Sequence record: NC_031928.1
Direction: 5' to 3' (one strand)
Origin: Escherichia phage WG01
Length of the DNA: 64,000 nt
Shown here one piece after another: positions 3,286-36,443 of the stretch (the stretch's first letter is position 1; each line of letters starts with the position of its first letter). Both the position numbers and the translations under genes were made by a program. The notes under the pieces were generated by a model that worked only from the letters and a program-made list of their open reading frames with translations, made no database searches and was not told where the DNA came from.

Positions 3286-3777
3286 ATGGAGTTGACAGAT
3301 ATCACTCGTGCGTTTGAGTCAGGTGACTTTGCACGCCCTAACCTTTTCGAAGTGGAAATTCCATTTCTGGGTAAAAACTTTAGCTTTAAATGTAAAGCAG
3401 CACCTATGCCGGCAGGCATTGTAGAAAAAGTACCGGTTGGCTACATGAACCGTAAAATTAACGTAGCCGGTGACCGTACGTTTGATGATTGGACCATTAC
3501 CATTTATAACGATGATGCACATGACACCCGTCAAGCAATTGTCGATTGGCAGAATCTCTGTCACGGTATGACCAATGAAATTACCGGTGCAGCACCTGCA
3601 GAATATAAGAAACAAGCAGTAGTTCGCCAGTTCCATCGTGACGGCAAGACTGTGACCAAAGAAGTTACAATTTACGGCTTATGGCCTACTAACGTTGGTG
3701 AAGTCCAGATGGATTGGGACAGCAACAACGAGGTAGAAACTTTCGAATCTACGTTCGCTATCGATTGGTGGGAATGA
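3286..3777 (+). CDS. 19: tail tube protein
   Basis: 163 aa, same length as T4 gp19; follows gene 18; SD AAGAGG. Confidence 0.93.
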   Translation: MELTDITRAFESGDFARPNLFEVEIPFLGKNFSFKCKAAPMPAGIVEKVPVGYMNRKINVAGDRTFDDWTITIYNDDAHDTRQAIVDWQNLCHGMTNEITGAAPAEYKKQAVVRQFHRDGKTVTKEVTIYGLWPTNVGEVQMDWDSNNEVETFESTFAIDWWE

Positions 3778-3778
3778 G

Positions 3779-3786
3779 TATAAATA
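3779..3786 (+). promoter_or_regulatory. late promoter TATAAATA upstream of gene 20
   Basis: Exact consensus, just after gene 19 stop. Confidence 0.6.
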
Positions 3787-3794
3787 GAATTATC

Positions 3795-3812
3795 AAGGAG
3801 CTTCGGCTCCTT
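3795..3812 (+). promoter_or_regulatory. UUCG-tetraloop stem-loop between genes 19 and 20
   Basis: AAGGAGC-TTCG-GCTCCTT, 9 nt downstream of the late promoter. Confidence 0.45.
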
Positions 3813-3834
3813 ATCCCATTCATCGGAGACTCTA

Positions 3835-5409
3835 ATGGCAAACTTTAATACAATATTAAGTTTTCTTAAGCCATGGGCTAATGAAGACGAAAAAGAATAT
3901 AAACAACAAATTAATAACAATTTAGAGTCTGTCACCGCACCTAAGCTTGATGATGGCGCTCGCGAAATTGAGACACAAGAGCAAAATATTCCTTATAATG
4001 CTCTTATGCAACAGATGTTTGGTAGTAATGAGCCTGAAGTTAAAAATACCAGGGAACTTATTGATACCTACCGTAATTTAATGAACAACTATGAAGTCGA
4101 CAACGCCGTACAGGAAATTGTGTCTGACGCTATTGTCTATGAGGATGATAAAGAAGTAGTTGCATTGAATTTAGACGGGACAGAATTTAGTCAAGCAATT
4201 AAAGATAAAATCTTGGCCGAATTCAGTGAAGTTTTAAACCTTTTAAATTTCCAACGTAAAGGTACTGACCATTTCCAACGCTGGTATGTAGACTCAAGAA
4301 TTTTCTTTCATAAAATTATAAACCCTAAAAAAATGAAAGATGGCGTACAAGAGCTTCGTCGCTTAGACCCACGCCAAGTCCAATATATTCGTGAAATCGT
4401 TACACGTATGGAAGATGGCGTTAAAGTTGTAGACGGATATCGCGAGTTTTTCGTTTATGATACAGGCCATGAAAGTTATTGCGCTGATGGACGCATTTAT
4501 TCAGCCGGGACTAAAGTTAAAATTCCTCGTGCTGCAGTGGTTTATGCTCATTCTGGATTATTAGATTGTTGTGGTAAAAACATCATTGGCTATTTGCAAC
4601 GTGCTATTAAGCCTGCAAACCAGCTTAAATTGATGGAAGACGCAATGGTCATCTACCGTATTACACGTGCTCCTGACCGTCGTGTGTTTTATATCGATAC
4701 AGGTAATATGCCTTCACGTAAGGCTGCAGCACAAATGCAACATATCATGAACACGATGAAAAACCGTGTGGTGTATGATGCTTCGACAGGTAAAATTAAA
4801 AACCAACAACACAATATGTCCATGACTGAAGACTATTGGTTGCAACGTCGTGATGGTAAAGCGGTAACAGAAGTTGATACAATGCCAGGTGCTACTGGTA
4901 TGAGTGATATGGATGACGTTCTTTATTTCCGCACAGCACTTTACCGTGCGTTGCGTGTTCCTGAATCACGTATCCCTAGCGAGTCTAATTCTGGTGTTAT
5001 GTTTGATGCCGGTACAGCAATCACTCGTGACGAATTAAAATTCTCTAAATGGATTCGTCAACTACAAAACAAATTTGAAGAAATTTTCCTAGACCCGTTA
5101 AAAACAAACCTCATTCTTAAAAAGATTATTACAGAAGATGAGTGGGAAAAGGAAATAAATAATATTAAAGTTACGTTTAACCGTGATAGCTATTTCAGTG
5201 AAATGAAAGATGCTGAAATCATGGAACGCAGAATCAATATGCTAACGATGGCTGAACCATTTATTGGTAAGTATATTTCACATCAAACGGCTATGAAAGA
5301 TTTCCTCCAAATGACCGACGAAGAAATTAATCAAGAAGCTAAGCAAATTGAAGAAGAGTCTAAAGAGGCTCGTTTCCAAAACCCAGATGAAGAAGAAGAG
5401 GATTTCTAA
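3835..5409 (+). CDS. 20: portal vertex protein
   Basis: 524 aa; strong recalled similarity to T4 gp20 ([10 protein letters not shown]..., [21 protein letters not shown]...); SD GGAG. Confidence 0.95.
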
Positions 5410-25344: not shown

Positions 25345-27468
25345 CTACATTTTGAATTTATTTGATAAAGAAGAGATATCCAAAGACGCTGCAAGGATTT
25401 CCATAGCCTCGTTGCTTTCAGAAACAGATTCATTAACCAAGAATTGACTGAACCCATCCATCAGGCGAACTTCACCAGTTTCCATCAAATGGTCACCATC
25501 GTAAACAGATTCGCTGAGCTCTGAAGGAGGTGTTACGGTAGCTTCCATAAGGTATTTGTGAGATACTCTATCATTCATGGCAAAAGCCGCTACTTTATCA
25601 ACCTTCAACAATAATCCACGCGGAAGGATAATTTCTGCTTCTTCGGCATATTCTGTAAGGTCACCAGGAGCGATAACTTTAACTGCTTCAGCACCTCGAA
25701 TAACCATACCAATTTCAGCAATTCTATCTGCAGGACCTTCAGGTGCAATTGGATTACCAAACTCGTCTTCTTCCCATTCTACCTCTTCGTCATCGACTTC
25801 ACCTACATCAGATGAACTACCACTAGCCAATTTAAACAACTCATCAGCGGAGGATAAAGAACCTTCACCGCCAACAAAAACGGCTTGGTTGTCGAGGGCC
25901 ATATAATTTTTACCAAATTCACCAAAGATGTTAGGTTTTAGTGAGGCTGACACAAAGTTCTTAAAGTAAAATGTTTTGTTATCGATATTATGGCGCAGAA
26001 TTTTGTATGGCAAATCCTGACCACGATACAAAATAGTACCCTTAGGAAGTTTAATACCCTTAGTAAATGCCGAGTCTAAATCCTTAATCAATTTAATAGC
26101 CGTTGTATTGTTTTCGGATTCAGGTTTACCTAAAAGGAATAAGTTCATAGGAGCATATTCAGCCGCGCAATATTCAATAATAGCATTGCTTTCGTCTTTG
26201 GTTAGGTCCTTAGGTTTAATGAGCTCGCCTGAATAAGCATATGCATCACTAATAGAATCGTTAACCAGTTTATAAACGGCTTCCATAGCGAAAGCAATTC
26301 TAGATGCTTTCTCTGAAGGGGAACCCTTAAAACGGGTACTCAGGTTATTAACAATTTTCTTAATAATATCCAGACTATTGGTTGTATTGATTTGCGAAAG
26401 GCCACTTAAAAGTCTATCGACTTCTGTATTAAAAAATGCCATATTATTAGAGTAAATTTCAAACCCTTGTTTATCTCTATTAGCATAATTTAGTTTAAAT
26501 TTACTATCAGTCATTAAAGCGTGTGTGAGAGCAATAGTGTATCTAAAGTTGGCAAGGTCCTCGCTCTTAGATTTAAACTGAGAAGCCTGACGCATTTTAG
26601 TAATGGCACCTTTTTTAAAGTTCTGACTAATCTGTTCAATACCTTCGTTCTCAGGGCCTTCAGCCGTGTGAACCGGTACAGAAGCTTCAAACTCGTTATA
26701 AACCTGCAATTCTTTAGGGGACAAAGTTTCAGGCTCAGCAGTAGAATACTGCGCCGCCGCTGCCATACGACGCGAAATCTTAGTACGAGTAATGACAGCC
26801 TTATCAGTACGTTTCTCTTCAACTTGTGCAATAGATGCCGCTACGGCTTCGACCTTACTTACAGCCTGGCCGGTTTTCTTAGAAACATACACTTCGCCAA
26901 CTTTAGACTCAACTTTAGTATAAAGATCGGCATTAATTTCAGGCATACCCTTGATATCTTCAATATTAGCACCACGACGTACTAAAAGAACGTAGGTATG
27001 TTTTCCGCTGAATTGGAACATGTCGTCAACAACTTTAAACTTACCACCGGTACGAGCCATAGCCAAGCGAGCTAATACGCGCTGAACGGTAGGACCTTTA
27101 CCTTTCATTTTCTTGGTAGGGAACCGGAAAAGAACTGCATCCATTTTAAGTTTGTTTACTTGTTCGTATACAGTATCAAAAATGGTATTCAGCGTACCAA
27201 GTGGGTCAGAACCTAACCCACCTTTCAACTCGGCTGGGCTACCCTTAGCAGACAAACTCATCAAAATAACATGAACATATTTGTCGCCCGGCTTAACCAT
27301 TTTAATAGCGTCTCCTTGAGACGCATAAGATACCATACGAGCAACCAGATTATCATTACCTGGTGCTTGGATAGAGAAAATCTGTGGAATACCGGAACCC
27401 GGTTTAAGATTTGTTACTGGATAGTTTTTAGCGGAATCACTATCAAAAACCTCATTTAAATTTTCCAT
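25345..27468 (-). CDS. alt: Alt-like ADP-ribosyltransferase, paralog 1
   Basis: 707 aa; conserved N-terminal ~230 aa shared with the two neighbours; C-terminal ART-like motifs YRGQ, FVSASL, EAEIILPRG. Confidence 0.85.
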   Translation of the reverse strand: MENLNEVFDSDSAKNYPVTNLKPGSGIPQIFSIQAPGNDNLVARMVSYASQGDAIKMVKPGDKYVHVILMSLSAKGSPAELKGGLGSDPLGTLNTIFDTVYEQVNKLKMDAVLFRFPTKKMKGKGPTVQRVLARLAMARTGGKFKVVDDMFQFSGKHTYVLLVRRGANIEDIKGMPEINADLYTKVESKVGEVYVSKKTGQAVSKVEAVAASIAQVEEKRTDKAVITRTKISRRMAAAAQYSTAEPETLSPKELQVYNEFEASVPVHTAEGPENEGIEQISQNFKKGAITKMRQASQFKSKSEDLANFRYTIALTHALMTDSKFKLNYANRDKQGFEIYSNNMAFFNTEVDRLLSGLSQINTTNSLDIIKKIVNNLSTRFKGSPSEKASRIAFAMEAVYKLVNDSISDAYAYSGELIKPKDLTKDESNAIIEYCAAEYAPMNLFLLGKPESENNTTAIKLIKDLDSAFTKGIKLPKGTILYRGQDLPYKILRHNIDNKTFYFKNFVSASLKPNIFGEFGKNYMALDNQAVFVGGEGSLSSADELFKLASGSSSDVGEVDDEEVEWEEDEFGNPIAPEGPADRIAEIGMVIRGAEAVKVIAPGDLTEYAEEAEIILPRGLLLKVDKVAAFAMNDRVSHKYLMEATVTPPSELSESVYDGDHLMETGEVRLMDGFSQFLVNESVSESNEAMEILAASLDISSLSNKFKM

Positions 27469-27471
27469 TAT

Positions 27472-29553
27472 TTACCCTTGGATGAATTTTTCTGGGATGT
27501 CATAGAGGTCTATGCATGAAGCCAAAAGAGGCAGTACATCAAACCGTGTAGATTTAACAAATGAATCAAAAGATAAGGGGCTTTCGGAAGTATCGAAGTC
27601 ATCTTGATATACGACCAACTCGCCGGTTTCCATTAGTACATCACCATCATATACCACAGATTCTTGAAGCTCATCTGTTGTCATAACTTCAGCTTGAATG
27701 AGTTTTGTATTACTAGATGTTGTTCCATCATTATTAGAAGCATCTGTTATTTTATTAACTTTGACCATTAATCCACGCGGTAGAATAACTTCAGCTTCAG
27801 TTGCTATTCCGAGATTTCCTGGATATACGACATTAACTTTATGGGCCCCATCAATAGCCCATCCTATTTGAACTTTAACATAATCAGGATTTTCTTTATA
27901 TGCTCTTATTTCATTAGGATTAATAGTTATTCCTTCTTCATTTTTATCAACTGTCAATTCGTTGCGAACTTCCGGTTCTAAAAGACCAATACCAGCGTGC
28001 GTAACACCAAAACGTCCGAAAATTATAGGAGTTAAAGAAGTAGATACAAAATTTCTAAAATAAAACACTTTATTTTTAACTAGTGCTTCGTATATAGGAG
28101 CAGTCATACTCTGGGCACGATAAACTGTAATGCCTTCCGGTATACGGTCACCATTTTCAAAAGCTGAATCTAAATTATTTACAGCGGATTCGATATCTTT
28201 TTCGCTCATAACCTCATAGTTCTGAGGATTATAACGTCCTAAAAGAAGATTATTTATGTCTGTATATCCTGAACCACAATATTCTCTGATACCACGCTTT
28301 TGTGATGGAGTATATTTAGAACCTTCACGAGCAATAGTAATATCAACCATAATACCACCACCCACACCAGCAAAACTATACACGCGTTTTTTAATGAACT
28401 TAGTCTTGGCTGCTTTCCACTTGGCCTCTGTCAATTCGTTCCAAAGGTCATCAGGTTGGCCTTTACGAGTTCTGTTATGGATAGCCAGCCACTCGCCTTT
28501 ATATTCTTCGAAAATGGTATTAATAGCAGAGGCATATTTTTCTAGAGCTTTAACAGATGTCAAAGGTTCGTTTTTTATTGCTGTAAGAATTTTCTCTTTA
28601 ATTTTCTCTTGGATTTCACCAATACCGTGAAGTGGGAACAATTTATAGTCGTAATGCAATTCTTCAGCAGTGCCTTCAGCTACTATATTAGCAACCTTAT
28701 TTTTAGCCGCAGGAGAATTGTTATTAGTAACCATTTCCTGAGCCTCAGGGATTAATGGAACTGTTGCCGGTTTATTAAAATCCGCTGCAGTAGCTTCATA
28801 TTTCTTAAACAATTCACTTTCATTACGATAAGATTCCAATGATTGGCTTGCTGCAATGGCGCGCCTAGAAATCTTAGTCTTGGTTATAACCATTTTATCA
28901 GTGCGACGTTCTTCAACCTTAGCAATACTACCGGCGATAGCAGTTTCTTTAGTAACCTGCACGCCTTCTTTTTTAGAAATATAAACTTCACCGACATCAG
29001 AATCTACCTTAGTATACAATTCAGCATTAATTCCAGGCATACCTTTGATATCTTCTATATCAGCTTGTTTACGAACTACCAGGATGTAAGTATGTTTACC
29101 GGTAAATTGGTACATAGCCGGAACTACTTTAAAACGTCCACCTGTTTTCTGTGCTACCAAACGTTGGATAATCCGTTGAACGATAGGGCCTTGACCTTTC
29201 ATTTTCTTAGTAGGGAAACGGAACATCACGGCATCCATACGAAGCTTTTTAACCTGTTCGAATACTACGTCGAAAATGGTATTAATAGCATCAATAGGAG
29301 TAGGGCCTAAGCCACCTTTAAGTTCTGCTGGAGTACCTTTAGCTGAAAGGCTCATAAGGATAACGTGGGCATATTTATCACCCATCTTAACCTGTTTAAT
29401 AGCATCGCCTTCAGAAGCATAGGATACCATACGTGCTACTAACTGAGACTCCGCGTCTCCAATCTTCCAAATCTGAGGTACTTTAAGTTTTGGGTTCAAG
29501 TTCACAACAGGCAGTGTACCTTCGGACTCGAACACTTCATTTAATTGGGTCAT
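27472..29553 (-). CDS. alt: Alt-like ADP-ribosyltransferase, paralog 2
   Basis: 693 aa; same architecture; motifs YRAQ, FVSTSL, EAEVILPRG. Confidence 0.85.
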   Translation of the reverse strand: MTQLNEVFESEGTLPVVNLNPKLKVPQIWKIGDAESQLVARMVSYASEGDAIKQVKMGDKYAHVILMSLSAKGTPAELKGGLGPTPIDAINTIFDVVFEQVKKLRMDAVMFRFPTKKMKGQGPIVQRIIQRLVAQKTGGRFKVVPAMYQFTGKHTYILVVRKQADIEDIKGMPGINAELYTKVDSDVGEVYISKKEGVQVTKETAIAGSIAKVEERRTDKMVITKTKISRRAIAASQSLESYRNESELFKKYEATAADFNKPATVPLIPEAQEMVTNNNSPAAKNKVANIVAEGTAEELHYDYKLFPLHGIGEIQEKIKEKILTAIKNEPLTSVKALEKYASAINTIFEEYKGEWLAIHNRTRKGQPDDLWNELTEAKWKAAKTKFIKKRVYSFAGVGGGIMVDITIAREGSKYTPSQKRGIREYCGSGYTDINNLLLGRYNPQNYEVMSEKDIESAVNNLDSAFENGDRIPEGITVYRAQSMTAPIYEALVKNKVFYFRNFVSTSLTPIIFGRFGVTHAGIGLLEPEVRNELTVDKNEEGITINPNEIRAYKENPDYVKVQIGWAIDGAHKVNVVYPGNLGIATEAEVILPRGLMVKVNKITDASNNDGTTSSNTKLIQAEVMTTDELQESVVYDGDVLMETGELVVYQDDFDTSESPLSFDSFVKSTRFDVLPLLASCIDLYDIPEKFIQG

Positions 29554-29561
29554 AATCTATC

Positions 29562-31457
29562 CTATTTAAATAAATTTGCTAATTTTTCCATAGAATCTTC
29601 ATACATAATTCTATCATAATTTCCAAACGAGAATCCGGTGCTATATGAATTTTCCTCTGTGATTTGCTCGGTAGCTACAACTTCACATTCCACTAAAACA
29701 TATTTACCAATTGAACCCATAGGTCCCTTGGAAGCACCGTATACTTTATTAATCTTAAGCATAACCCCACGAGGAAGAATTACTTCGGTTTCTGTAGACC
29801 AATTAGCCAAGTCACCGGGCACAATAACCTTAATTTTATCAGCACCTTTAATAATTAACCCTAGCTTAATGGTATCTCTAGCACTTCCGGTCGCACTTTT
29901 AATGGTGTCTTCAAGATTACTATCTATATCGCTAGAAAGAGCTTCAGGGTCTAAGTTGGATTGAGCATGACCCATTTCACCGAAAATATTAGGAGCCAAT
30001 GAAGTTGATGCAAAAATAGGAAGATACATCACCTTATGTTTTATAGAATTCAAAGCCATTTCGGTAGGCATTATCTGAGAACGATACACTATGGTTCCTT
30101 TAGGAAGTTTTGTACCATTTTCAAATGTAGAATCCAACTCACCAATCATTTTTATCATTTCATCGGTGGTATCTGTTTTACCTAGCAAAAAGTTGTTTAT
30201 ATGGTTGTAGCCGCCACGAGTATACTTTTTGACTGCCTCTTCTTGAGGTTTGGATAAATTAGGATTATCAGATATCTTAAACAACGGTTGGATAGATTTT
30301 GTATAAACTGCTACTAAGGATTTTATTACTTCCTTGATTTTAGATTCTCTAGCCCAAGTACCTTTAACTGAATCATCTAAAAGGGCCGCAGCGACTAGTC
30401 TAAGAATGTCTACATGAGATTTACCTGATTTTAAAGCCTCTATGACACTATTAGATTTATCTAAAGAATCTGATGCCTCTAAAGCAAACTTTATATCAGC
30501 AATTAGTTTAAGTTTGCGCTCGTCTACTTCAAATGATGGATTAACACCGTTAAAAATATAATCCAAATATTCTGCCATTTCTTTAGAGGCGTCTTTTAAT
30601 ATTTTATTACTGGCTAAAGCTATTTGGCTTTCTTTAGAATCTTCAGAAGAATGAACGGAACTAGTAGCAGAATAATCTGCATAAGCTTTTTTGTGCTCTG
30701 CCGAAAATTTACTCAATCCTGTAGGCTCGGCGGTAGAATATAACGCATTTATAGCGGCCCGTTTAGAAACCTTAGTCTTGGTTATAACCATTTTATCAGA
30801 ACGTGATTTTTCTATTTCGTCTATAGACTTAGCTATAGCTTCTAATTTGGTAACATCTTCGCCTGTTTTCTTTGAAACATACACATCACCGACTTCAGAT
30901 TCGACTTTAGTATACAATTCCGGATTAATATTAGGAATACCGTTTATTGATTCTATATTTTTATTTTTACGATAGATAAAAACATATGAATGTTTGCCTG
31001 TATATTGATACAAGGCATCAAGGACCTTGAATTGCCCACCTGCTCTAGTAGCTATTAATTTGGCTAGAACTCGTTGTACAGCTTTTTCCTGACCTTTCAT
31101 TTTCTTAGTAGGAAAACGGAACATAACGGCATCCATACGGAGCTTTTTAACTTGTTCATAAACCGTATCAAATATAGAACGAATAGCGGAAATGGGGTTA
31201 CTACCTAAACCACCTTTGAGTTCTGCCGGGGCCCCTTTAGATGATAGGCTCATTAAAATAATATGAACGTATTTGTCACCCGGTTTAACTTGGCGGATTG
31301 TATCACCTTCAGAAGTATATGAAACCATGCGTGCAACAAGGTTCTCATTACCTTCAGCCTTTATATTCCAAATCTGTGGTACTTTAAGTTTAGGGTTTAA
31401 ATTGACAGCTGATAAATCTATAGCGCCGTCAAATACCTCATTCAATTGTTCGGACAT
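29562..31457 (-). CDS. alt: Alt-like ADP-ribosyltransferase, paralog 3
   Basis: 631 aa; motifs YRSQ, FASTSL, ETEVILPRG; SD AAGAGGAA. Confidence 0.85.
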   Translation of the reverse strand: MSEQLNEVFDGAIDLSAVNLNPKLKVPQIWNIKAEGNENLVARMVSYTSEGDTIRQVKPGDKYVHIILMSLSSKGAPAELKGGLGSNPISAIRSIFDTVYEQVKKLRMDAVMFRFPTKKMKGQEKAVQRVLAKLIATRAGGQFKVLDALYQYTGKHSYVFIYRKNKNIESINGIPNINPELYTKVESEVGDVYVSKKTGEDVTKLEAIAKSIDEIEKSRSDKMVITKTKVSKRAAINALYSTAEPTGLSKFSAEHKKAYADYSATSSVHSSEDSKESQIALASNKILKDASKEMAEYLDYIFNGVNPSFEVDERKLKLIADIKFALEASDSLDKSNSVIEALKSGKSHVDILRLVAAALLDDSVKGTWARESKIKEVIKSLVAVYTKSIQPLFKISDNPNLSKPQEEAVKKYTRGGYNHINNFLLGKTDTTDEMIKMIGELDSTFENGTKLPKGTIVYRSQIMPTEMALNSIKHKVMYLPIFASTSLAPNIFGEMGHAQSNLDPEALSSDIDSNLEDTIKSATGSARDTIKLGLIIKGADKIKVIVPGDLANWSTETEVILPRGVMLKINKVYGASKGPMGSIGKYVLVECEVVATEQITEENSYSTGFSFGNYDRIMYEDSMEKLANLFK

Positions 31458-33505: not shown

Positions 33506-34144
33506 TTAACCTCGAGCAATCCATTCAACTGCGGCATTATTACGAAGGGATTCGATTGCTGCGATATCGTCCCATGAATTAACCTTTACGGCTAAATTAG
33601 GTTTAAAGTCACGTTCACCACGAGCTAACCAATAAACTTGGATATCCATGAGAACATTAGATGCAGCATCACAGTGGTGAGCCAAATCATCAACATAAAA
33701 CTTAATACGTTTACCGTAAGTATTTTTAGCTCTTATGAAGAGGTCTTCTTTTGATTCTGAATGACCACACATCAGAATCTCCTTGAATGCGCCAGGGAAC
33801 AAAGCATTCAAATTGAATTGTCTATTCAGCAGGGCATCAATTGAGTCGCCTAGCGCAGTCACGGCTACAAAATCGAAGTCTTTTTTGAGCCTGTTGATAT
33901 GTTTTAATGCGTCCATGTAAGGAGACAGATAACGAATAAAATCTGACTGATTATATTTCTCGATTAAACGAGCGCCTAATTCATTATCACAATTAAACAG
34001 CTCGCCTGGAGATAAGAAACGTTCGTCCTGAATCATATTCAAAATATGTTCTAAAGGCAAATTATATTTCTGTGCGAAATAAGGCAAGCCGGACTGCCAA
34101 CTTAAACATACTCCATCGATATCTGTTAAGATAACTGGTTTCAT
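33506..34144 (-). CDS. HAD-superfamily hydrolase-like protein (possible deoxyribonucleotidase-type)
   Basis: 212 aa; N-terminal LTDIDGVCL resembles the HAD DxDG[VT] nucleophile motif. Confidence 0.55.
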   Translation of the reverse strand: MKPVILTDIDGVCLSWQSGLPYFAQKYNLPLEHILNMIQDERFLSPGELFNCDNELGARLIEKYNQSDFIRYLSPYMDALKHINRLKKDFDFVAVTALGDSIDALLNRQFNLNALFPGAFKEILMCGHSESKEDLFIRAKNTYGKRIKFYVDDLAHHCDAASNVLMDIQVYWLARGERDFKPNLAVKVNSWDDIAAIESLRNNAAVEWIARG

Positions 34145-34599
34145 AATAAATCTCTCAATTTGTTTAGGATGTCGATAAACTCTTTTTCAGTTAGTATTGT
34201 ATCACATTCTGTAAGGTGGCTCGCCATCGAATGCTTTAAAACTTTGCCCTTTGTAGCTTGTAATGCGTCGCGGAATCCTTTGTTTTGGAGCGCTGCTTCA
34301 AAATAAGCATTTGTATACAACTCTTTCCATGATGCAGAGTATCTTGAAAAGGGAATTCCAAGCCAGAAAAGCGTCCCACGGTCCGCAGCTCTTGCATAAG
34401 CTCTTCCAGTTTGTTGTGCGGCCAGACCGGACATCCCAAATATACGTTTTTGTTGTTCATGATTTCTCACCTTACACCCTTGGAGGAATCCTTCGAGCCC
34501 TCCAAATTGGATACCATCCATAACGAAAGGCCATTTAGCAAAGTTACTTAATGCACACGATGGCCACGGAAAATTACTTCTGATTTCTAACTCAGACAT
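34141..34599 (-). CDS. NADAR (YbiA-like, DUF1768) domain protein
   Basis: Start at ATG 34599 overlapping the upstream stop (ATGTCTGA); 152 aa; LSNFAKWPF.MDGIQFGGLEGFLQGCKV resembles the E. coli YbiA N-terminal signature. Confidence 0.6.
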   Translation of the reverse strand: MSELEIRSNFPWPSCALSNFAKWPFVMDGIQFGGLEGFLQGCKVRNHEQQKRIFGMSGLAAQQTGRAYARAADRGTLFWLGIPFSRYSASWKELYTNAYFEAALQNKGFRDALQATKGKVLKHSMASHLTECDTILTEKEFIDILNKLRDLL

Positions 34600-34804
34600 C
34601 TTTGACACTGATAATCTTGGTTGCATACCACATGCCATGGTCTGGCAATCTTTCTTTAATTGACTGCCCGCGATATGTTTTTCGCATAACAACAGTTTTA
34701 ATAGCATCTTCATCGCAAGCATATGGCGGTGATAAATCAATAACACGATAAGTCACTTCAACCAGTTCCAAGCCAAACAGCTTTTTAAATAATTTCTTAA
34801 TCAT
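34592..34804 (-). CDS. hypothetical protein (70 aa), tandem paralog A
   Basis: SD AAGGAG; paralogous to the next ORF (shared ...KKL..KL.G.E.VEVTYRV.DLSP...SIK.RLP..G.W....IISVKD). Confidence 0.6.
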   Translation of the reverse strand: MIKKLFKKLFGLELVEVTYRVIDLSPPYACDEDAIKTVVMRKTYRGQSIKERLPDHGMWYATKIISVKDV

Positions 34805-34813
34805 GAAGACTCC

Positions 34814-35026
34814 TTAAATATCTTTGACACTGATAATCTCTACATCAGCCCAATGACCATAACCAGGTAGACGGTCTTTAATAGATAATCCGCCGTCAGA
34901 TTTCAGCATTTTAATTGTTTTAGTATATGGTTCATCTTGTGGATGCACAGGAGATAAATCAGTTACACGATAAGTCACTTCGACCATTTCCGTACCTAAT
35001 AATTTCTGAATCAATTTCTTAAACAT
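34814..35026 (-). CDS. hypothetical protein (70 aa), tandem paralog B
   Basis: SD GAGGA; paralog of 34592-34804. Confidence 0.6.
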   Translation of the reverse strand: MFKKLIQKLLGTEMVEVTYRVTDLSPVHPQDEPYTKTIKMLKSDGGLSIKDRLPGYGHWADVEIISVKDI

Positions 35027-36421: not shown

Positions 36422-36443
36422 ATGGGACTCCGAAGAGTCCCAT
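36422..36443 (-). terminator. terminator after the 53-aa ORF
   Basis: ATGGGACTC-UUCG-GAGTCCCAT on minus strand followed by T-run. Confidence 0.6.

Follow-up and report, generated by a model that had tools for sequence, protein, structure and literature searches.

The window analysed here, a 64,000-nucleotide stretch of Escherichia phage WG01 (NC_031928.1), carries at 34141..34599 on the minus strand an open reading frame of 152 codons, identified here as adfN (gene 30.3) and predicted to encode a single-domain phage-type NADAR protein, a DNA guanine-ADP-ribose glycohydrolase. The frame opens with an ATG at 34599, closes with a TGA at 34141-34143, and is tightly packed between its neighbors. 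Its start overlaps the stop of an upstream 30.4-like gene by 8 nt (ATGTCTGA, 34592..34599, minus strand), an arrangement compatible with translational coupling, and T4 has the same 8-nt overlap between its genes 30.4 (128758-128964) and 30.3 (128307-128765). At the other end, an ATGA (34141..34144, minus strand) joins the adfN stop to the start of gene 30.2 (33506..34144, minus strand), again as in T4. The 30.4-like gene is one of a tandem pair on the minus strand (34592-34804 and 34814-35026), each encoding 70 aa, with 57% mutual identity and both matching phrog_2042, as compared with the single 30.4 gene that lies directly upstream of 30.3 in T4. Further downstream are three tandem full-length Alt-like ADP-ribosyltransferase genes, also on the minus strand (25345-27468, 27472-29553 and 29562-31457), whose products of 707, 693 and 631 aa all match PF03496. 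These paralogues are about 41% identical to one another, the middle one being nearest to T4 Alt (47%), while T4 has one alt gene plus the short duplication remnants alt.-1 and alt.-2. The gene order 30.4-like, 30.3, 30.2, 30.1 (DUF3045), DNA ligase (30) and alt is common to the window and T4 (NC_000866). An earlier, sequence-only reading of this DNA had pointed to the 152-aa frame and its YbiA-type motif, to three ADP-ribosyltransferase genes about 3 kb away, and to a DNA ligase, an HAD-fold gene, a polynucleotide kinase and an RNA ligase in the vicinity; all of these are present, with the Alt-type genes spanning 25345-31457, their nearest end 2.7 kb from adfN, and the RNA ligase being of the Rnl1 type.

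The start at 34599 is supported because 44 homologues have their aligned N-termini at this point, because the primers used to clone T4 adfN encode MSELEIRSN and hence the same start (PMC11257639), and because the T4 30.3 frame is closed two codons upstream of the ATG, limiting any T4 reading to 154 aa at most. In the window the frame stays open upstream (34600-34746, minus strand) as far as a GTG at 34746, from which a would-be product of 201 aa, overlapping the 30.4-like gene, could be read. This longer version was rejected, since the added stretch lacks conservation and the T4 reading cannot exceed 154 aa. Some homologues appear in databases with lengths of 201-202 aa, and 'residues 1-208' is how one paper lists its T4 AdfN construct; such lengths probably arise from mis-calls or from numbering that includes a tag.

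Two further features of the region were considered. The internal frame 30.3', annotated in T4 as a gene of 74 aa, is still open here in another frame inside adfN (34236-34460, minus strand). It is compatible with chance and shows no sign of being a selected gene, given that 13.7% of synonymous-codon shuffles of adfN open another frame over the same length or more, that it diverges much faster than AdfN (59% identity between its product and the T4 counterpart, against 86% for AdfN), and that substitutions within the overlap still fall mostly at adfN third codon positions. Upstream of the adfN block, between the 30.9-like and 30.8-like genes, the minus strand contains a strong hairpin resembling a terminator (ATGGGACTCTTCGGAGTCCCAT, with a T-run after it; 36422-36443). 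A promoter and terminator scan of the 31-38 kb region found sigma-70-like sites at no higher frequency than in shuffled sequences.

The identity of the gene is established by its relationship to T4. AdfN and T4 gp30.3 are of equal length and 86% identical, with 152/152 residues aligned and no gaps, and none of the 22 differing positions lies in a conserved column. The protein matches PF08010 (Phage_30_3, 'Bacteriophage protein GP30.3') with E = 3.6e-64 and 215.2 bits, where the Pfam gathering score is 36, over profile positions 2-138 of 138, and it matches phrog_652 with E = 7.5e-50. The 3 kb around adfN are 97-99% identical to Dhakavirus-type T-even phages, including LHE83, IME281, QL01 and Bp7. 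Most of the nucleotide substitutions relative to T4 (55 of 88) are at third codon positions, a bias that is as expected under purifying selection. The length of 152 aa, C-terminal helix included, is that of the T4 protein, and in seven further T-even phages examined the product is equally 152 aa long. Many tblastn matches in Tequatrovirus genomes appeared to be truncated at the C-terminus, with coverage ending at residue 144; this was dismissed as a local-alignment end effect, the underlying ORFs being 152 aa long. The ORF is thus adfN, the orthologue of T4 gene 30.3, in an intact and ordinary copy carried by a Dhakavirus-like T-even phage. Such copies are widespread, with 1,509 phage records encoding AdfN and some sequenced phages carrying 100% identical copies. 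Their database names say little about function: among 40 sampled rows one reads 'NADAR domain containing protein' and nearly all others 'hypothetical protein'. The closest relatives of the window also label the gene 'hypothetical protein', e.g. the LHE83 copy at 4142-4600 of the retrieved locus L003.

Membership of AdfN in the NADAR superfamily is less obvious from direct comparison. The PF08719 (NADAR/DUF1768) profile did not match AdfN even at E values up to 10, and a single-sequence phmmer search of PDB sequences returned E. coli YbiA (2b3w) as the sole match with a non-significant E = 1.2. The sequence-only reading had proposed a NADAR (YbiA-like) domain from the likeness between residues 17-44, which are LSNFAKWPFVMDGIQFGGLEGFLQGCKV as it quoted them, and a YbiA string, FSNFAAWPIKVDGKTWPTSEHYFQAQKF, which proved to be residues 29-56 of E. 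coli K-12 YbiA. With a pairwise E of 1.2 the motif alone could not prove NADAR identity, and the motif-level likeness to YbiA had nevertheless been rightly recognised, although the pairwise similarity is statistically marginal. When the family was used in place of the single sequence, a profile hmmsearch against PDB sequences again found YbiA as its sole match (E = 0.021), and hhalign of a profile of 44 homologues against E. coli YbiA gave E = 5.1e-7 and a probability of 92.4% over 95 columns (residues 15-122). Nine of the 44 homologues match PF08719 directly, the best with E = 1.5e-7. Several homologues are named 'YbiA (DUF1768 family)' by JGI.

The predicted structure agrees. The AlphaFold model of AdfN (pLDDT 95.4, pTM 0.89) has the YbiA fold, in which small beta-sheets flank an alpha-helical core, and a Foldseek search of the PDB with this model gave only three credible matches, which are the three solved NADAR structures (probability 0.99-1.00, TM 0.59-0.68). 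The best is YbiA 2b3w (E = 1.1e-4, TM 0.68), and the other two are the Phytophthora NADAR-ADP-ribose complex 8bau (PnNADAR) and the Geobacter lovleyi DarG1 NADAR 8bat; the remaining matches have E > 6 and TM < 0.2. On the strength of the hhalign alignment to YbiA, the PF08719 matches of homologues and the modelled structure, AdfN is established as a NADAR superfamily member despite the absent PF08719 match. Of the profile search that had been suggested as a check, the direct PF08719 part thus failed, while PF08010 matched directly and YbiA was recovered by hhalign; the suggested structural comparison with YbiA returned that protein as the top match.

The residues expected of an active enzyme are also in place. 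Invariant positions in the 44-homologue alignment are S18-N19-F20, E36, G37, F38, Q40, K43 and H123. Codons 36-43 (EGFLQGCK; 34471..34494, minus strand) contain the catalytic Glu36 and the phosphate-binding Lys43, which are aligned by hhalign with YbiA E48 and K55 and correspond to E43 and K50 of PnNADAR and to E88 and K95 of the E. coli C7 NADAR; mutational evidence on this Glu/Lys pair exists for the T4 protein (PMC11257639) and for the C7 NADAR. Codon 123 (34231..34233, minus strand) encodes the last-strand residue by which NADAR subfamilies have been told apart, His marking the phage type, Glu the YbiA type and Asp the DarG1 type (PMC11125620, PMC11543638). The invariant His123 of AdfN aligns with Glu125 of YbiA. 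Codons 138-152 (34144..34188, minus strand) form the C-terminal alpha-helix, which spans residues 138-151 in the AlphaFold model. The catalytic residues anticipated in the sequence-only reading are therefore present and invariant, with the last-strand His of the phage type. On profile, residues and fold alike, the computational checks named in that reading leave its proposal unrefuted.

These features place the protein among its relatives. With E. coli YbiA (2b3w; PF08719) AdfN shares the SNF...E...K motif, and YbiA also hydrolyses guanine-ADP-ribose in vitro (PMC11125620), but the two are only 19% identical, the YbiA-type Glu is replaced by His, and ybiA is a chromosomal gene in a LexA-controlled operon whose product has a known N-glycosidase activity on riboflavin intermediates. 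With DarG1 (the BC4488 family, including the E. coli C7 NADAR and G. lovleyi 8bat), the NADAR clade reported to be closest to AdfN (Johannesman et al.), it shares the fold (Foldseek probability 0.99, TM 0.62) and, going by the T4 enzyme, the reaction, i.e. reversal of guanine N2-ADP-ribosylation. AdfN differs from DarG1 in consisting of the core domain only, with no N-terminal extension, in having His instead of Asp at the last strand, and in being an orphan with no adjacent DarT; moreover, in uninfected cells T4 AdfN is no substitute for DarG1. None of the PADLOC defense models, DarG included, matched AdfN, which is expected for a counter-defense orphan. AdfN is thus a member of the phage-NADAR family and lacks the defining features of both the DarG1 and the YbiA subfamilies.

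The subfamily assignment bears on the idea that AdfN might be a YbiA-like metabolic N-glycosidase, clearing riboflavin-pathway intermediates or damaged nucleotides and having no part in DNA repair or anti-defense. YbiA is the top structural match and is annotated as an N-glycosidase in E. coli K-12, and the neighboring gene 30.2 encodes an HAD-fold, nucleotidase-like protein, all of which would suit such a role. We nevertheless find this reading barely credible, since the YbiA-type last-strand Glu is replaced by His in AdfN, the T4 orthologue has direct activity on DNA-linked ADP-ribose together with a DarTG1-specific phenotype, and the linkage to 30.2 is a matter of synteny only.

What the T4 orthologue does has been worked out in some detail. 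Gene 30.3 of T4 had been assigned to the phage NADARs on bioinformatic grounds ahead of any activity measurement (Johannesman et al.), and gp30.3 was then found in vitro to hydrolyse ADP-ribose linked to guanine, and not to thymine, on DNA, while being unable to protect uninfected E. coli from DarT1 (Toxins 2024, PMC11125620). Johannesman et al. (bioRxiv 2024, PMC11257639; Nat Commun 2025, PMC11825919) traced the resistance that T-even phages show against DarTG1 to gene 30.3, which they renamed adfN, for anti-DarT factor NADAR. In their hands, deletion of adfN from T4 and T2 made the phages about 10^4-fold sensitive to DarTG1, with ~4 logs of plating lost, ectopic AdfN rescued RB69, and E36A or K43A abolished this rescue (PMC11257639, PMC11825919). 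The RB69 allele itself carries a frameshift through which the final 15 residues are lost, a defect that correlates with sensitivity to DarTG1 (PMC11257639). Purified T4 AdfN strips ADP-ribose from DNA (PMC11257639, PMC11825919), and the protein is reported to clear ADP-ribose from phage DNA during infection and to have no effect on DarTG2 (Johannesman et al.). [quoted passage not shown] In a T4 transposon screen, adfN insertions are lost only when DarTG1 is present, the gene being otherwise dispensable on E. coli K-12 (bioRxiv 10.1101/2025.11.20.689424).

The proposal that the frame encodes an eraser of ADP-ribosylation, or an anti-DarT factor, thereby gains support through the 86%-identical T4 orthologue, for which it had already been published. 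The wider wording, that it counters 'DarTG-type defence', has to be narrowed: it stands for DarTG1 and guanine in the case of the T4 enzyme and falls for DarTG2 and thymine.

Activity beyond DNA has also been described. On RNA, the T4 NADAR can undo the ADP-ribosylation of guanosine in vitro (PMC11833690, PMC12945103), and it is inactive on cytosine-ADP-ribose and cytidine-ADP-ribose (PMC12945103). It could accordingly be supposed that the main substrate of AdfN is guanine-ADP-ribosylated RNA, produced by RNA-targeting toxins, in place of DNA. This activity is, however, markedly lower than that of the DarT1-linked NADAR (PMC11833690), the one phenotype known in vivo concerns DarTG1, and AdfN reportedly acts on phage DNA in infection, so that we hold a primarily RNA-directed function to be very unlikely. 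A possible RNA role would supplement the DNA role, not replace it.

A further alternative concerns the neighborhood of the gene. The sequence-only reading had suggested that AdfN may tune Alt-mediated modification, in which case it would be an eraser acting on the arginine-linked ADP-ribose that the three neighboring Alt paralogues place on host proteins, and three Alt-type genes do share the strand of adfN at a distance of 2.7-9 kb, which is all that speaks for this role. This proximity, however, reflects synteny inherited with the T4-type alt / 30 / 30.x block, and about 60 of 80 viral loci place the adfN homologue elsewhere, with neither ligase nor 30.2 within the ~4 kb flank. In the cited literature, all reported activities of T4 gp30.3 are on guanine bases of DNA or RNA, and protein de-ADP-ribosylation by a NADAR is absent from the cited NADAR work. 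T4 adfN is, moreover, dispensable on E. coli K-12 and essential only in the presence of DarTG1. Taken together, the synteny, the guanine-only activities and the dispensability argue against a role in tuning Alt, which we consider highly improbable.

Phage-borne NADARs with the same purpose are known outside the T-even phages. AdfN(Bas32) and AdfN(Bas60), from T5-like and Vequintavirinae phages, are likewise orphan, guanine-specific and counter DarTG1, but they belong to other NADAR clades, were independently acquired, need no T-even infection for their activity, and neutralise DarT1 even when cells are uninfected (Johannesman et al.). T4 AdfN, by comparison, only partly rescues non-T-even phages and is fully active only in T-even infection; this dependence is not accounted for by DNA modification, and the authors suspect a phage-encoded partner (PMC11825919). 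Since T4 AdfN does not rescue uninfected cells and only partly rescues non-T-even phages, the picture of a stand-alone antitoxin is incomplete.

Such a partner might be encoded by one of the genes whose frames overlap adfN. Gene 30.2 encodes an HAD-fold, phosphatase-like protein of 212 aa, 74% identical to T4 gp30.2, that lacks the ~70-aa C-terminal tail of the T4 protein (278 aa). It belongs to no Pfam family of its own; residues D8, D10, K132, D152 and D153 (the DxD, K and DD motifs) are invariant, and its AlphaFold model (pLDDT 94) finds HAD hydrolases in Foldseek, including 5'(3')-deoxyribonucleotidases. In a tblastn survey of 80 IMG/VR viral loci with an adfN homologue, covering ~4 kb flanks, 30.2 lay near adfN in 19, and the ligase was alongside in all 19. 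Because every one of these loci also keeps the ligase, the 30.2-adfN linkage is best read as shared synteny and not as a selected association.

A different pairing is seen in the distant T4-like Vibrio phage phi-ST2, in which an adfN homologue (3507-3971 of the retrieved locus L008), relocated beside genes 47 and 46, overlaps a downstream NT5C-type 5'(3')-deoxyribonucleotidase gene (3958-4458). The product of that gene is an HAD protein unrelated in sequence to gp30.2 save for motif I. No nucleotidase of the phi-ST2 type was found by tblastn near adfN in any of the 80 IMG/VR loci, and the pairing may be coincidental.

We have rejected the evidence that gp30.2 is coupled to AdfN as a functional partner, given a linkage in 19 of 80 loci that always includes the ligase and a phi-ST2-type pairing in none. 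More broadly, 30.4, 30.3 and 30.2 could be envisaged as a multi-part anti-DarT module, the partner of T4 AdfN being either gp30.2 or the duplicated 30.4-like small proteins. Such a module is disfavored by the synteny-type linkage of 30.2 and by the T4 transposon screen, in the text of which adfN is the only DarTG1 hit named (bioRxiv 10.1101/2025.11.20.689424), and we judge it very improbable. Homologues of two other anti-DarT factors, AdfA (gp61.2) and AdfM (the Tk.4 macrodomain), were absent from the 64-kb window. In T4 the genes for AdfA and AdfM sit away from the 30.x block, so this absence is uninformative with regard to the phage as a whole.

All of the above leads us to consider it very probable that the ORF is adfN in function as well as in name, i.e. 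a free-standing phage-type NADAR that hydrolyses the guanine-ADP-ribose made by DarT1 and thereby neutralises DarTG1. The locus agrees with that of T4 gp30.3 in its flanking genes, its start and stop overlaps, E36, K43, H123 and the C-terminal helix, and it differs in its setting, T4 being a Tequatrovirus with one alt and the phage studied here being Dhakavirus-like with three Alt paralogues. Since all conserved residues and helix 138-151 are kept, and the differences from T4 are mostly at third codon positions, we infer with high confidence, from the 86%-identical T4 protein, that this allele functions like that of T4. During infection, AdfN would be expressed as part of the 30.9-to-30 gene block, and would then hydrolyse the N-glycosidic bond between ADP-ribose and the guanine on which host DarT1 had placed it in phage DNA. 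If solved complexes of NADARs with ADP-ribose are a guide, the distal ribose would be positioned by Glu36 and His123, and the diphosphate would be bound by Lys43. Removal of the ADP-ribose would free the phage DNA for replication, such that the abortive-infection defense exerted by DarTG1 would be neutralised.

The finding brings no new biology, as the guanine-ADP-ribose hydrolase has been known since 2024 and the anti-DarTG1 factor of T-even phages since 2024-2025. Its practical value lies in annotation, for the database labels lag behind the papers of 2024-2025. For the phage itself, while saying nothing on DarTG2, the intact adfN gene predicts resistance to DarTG1.
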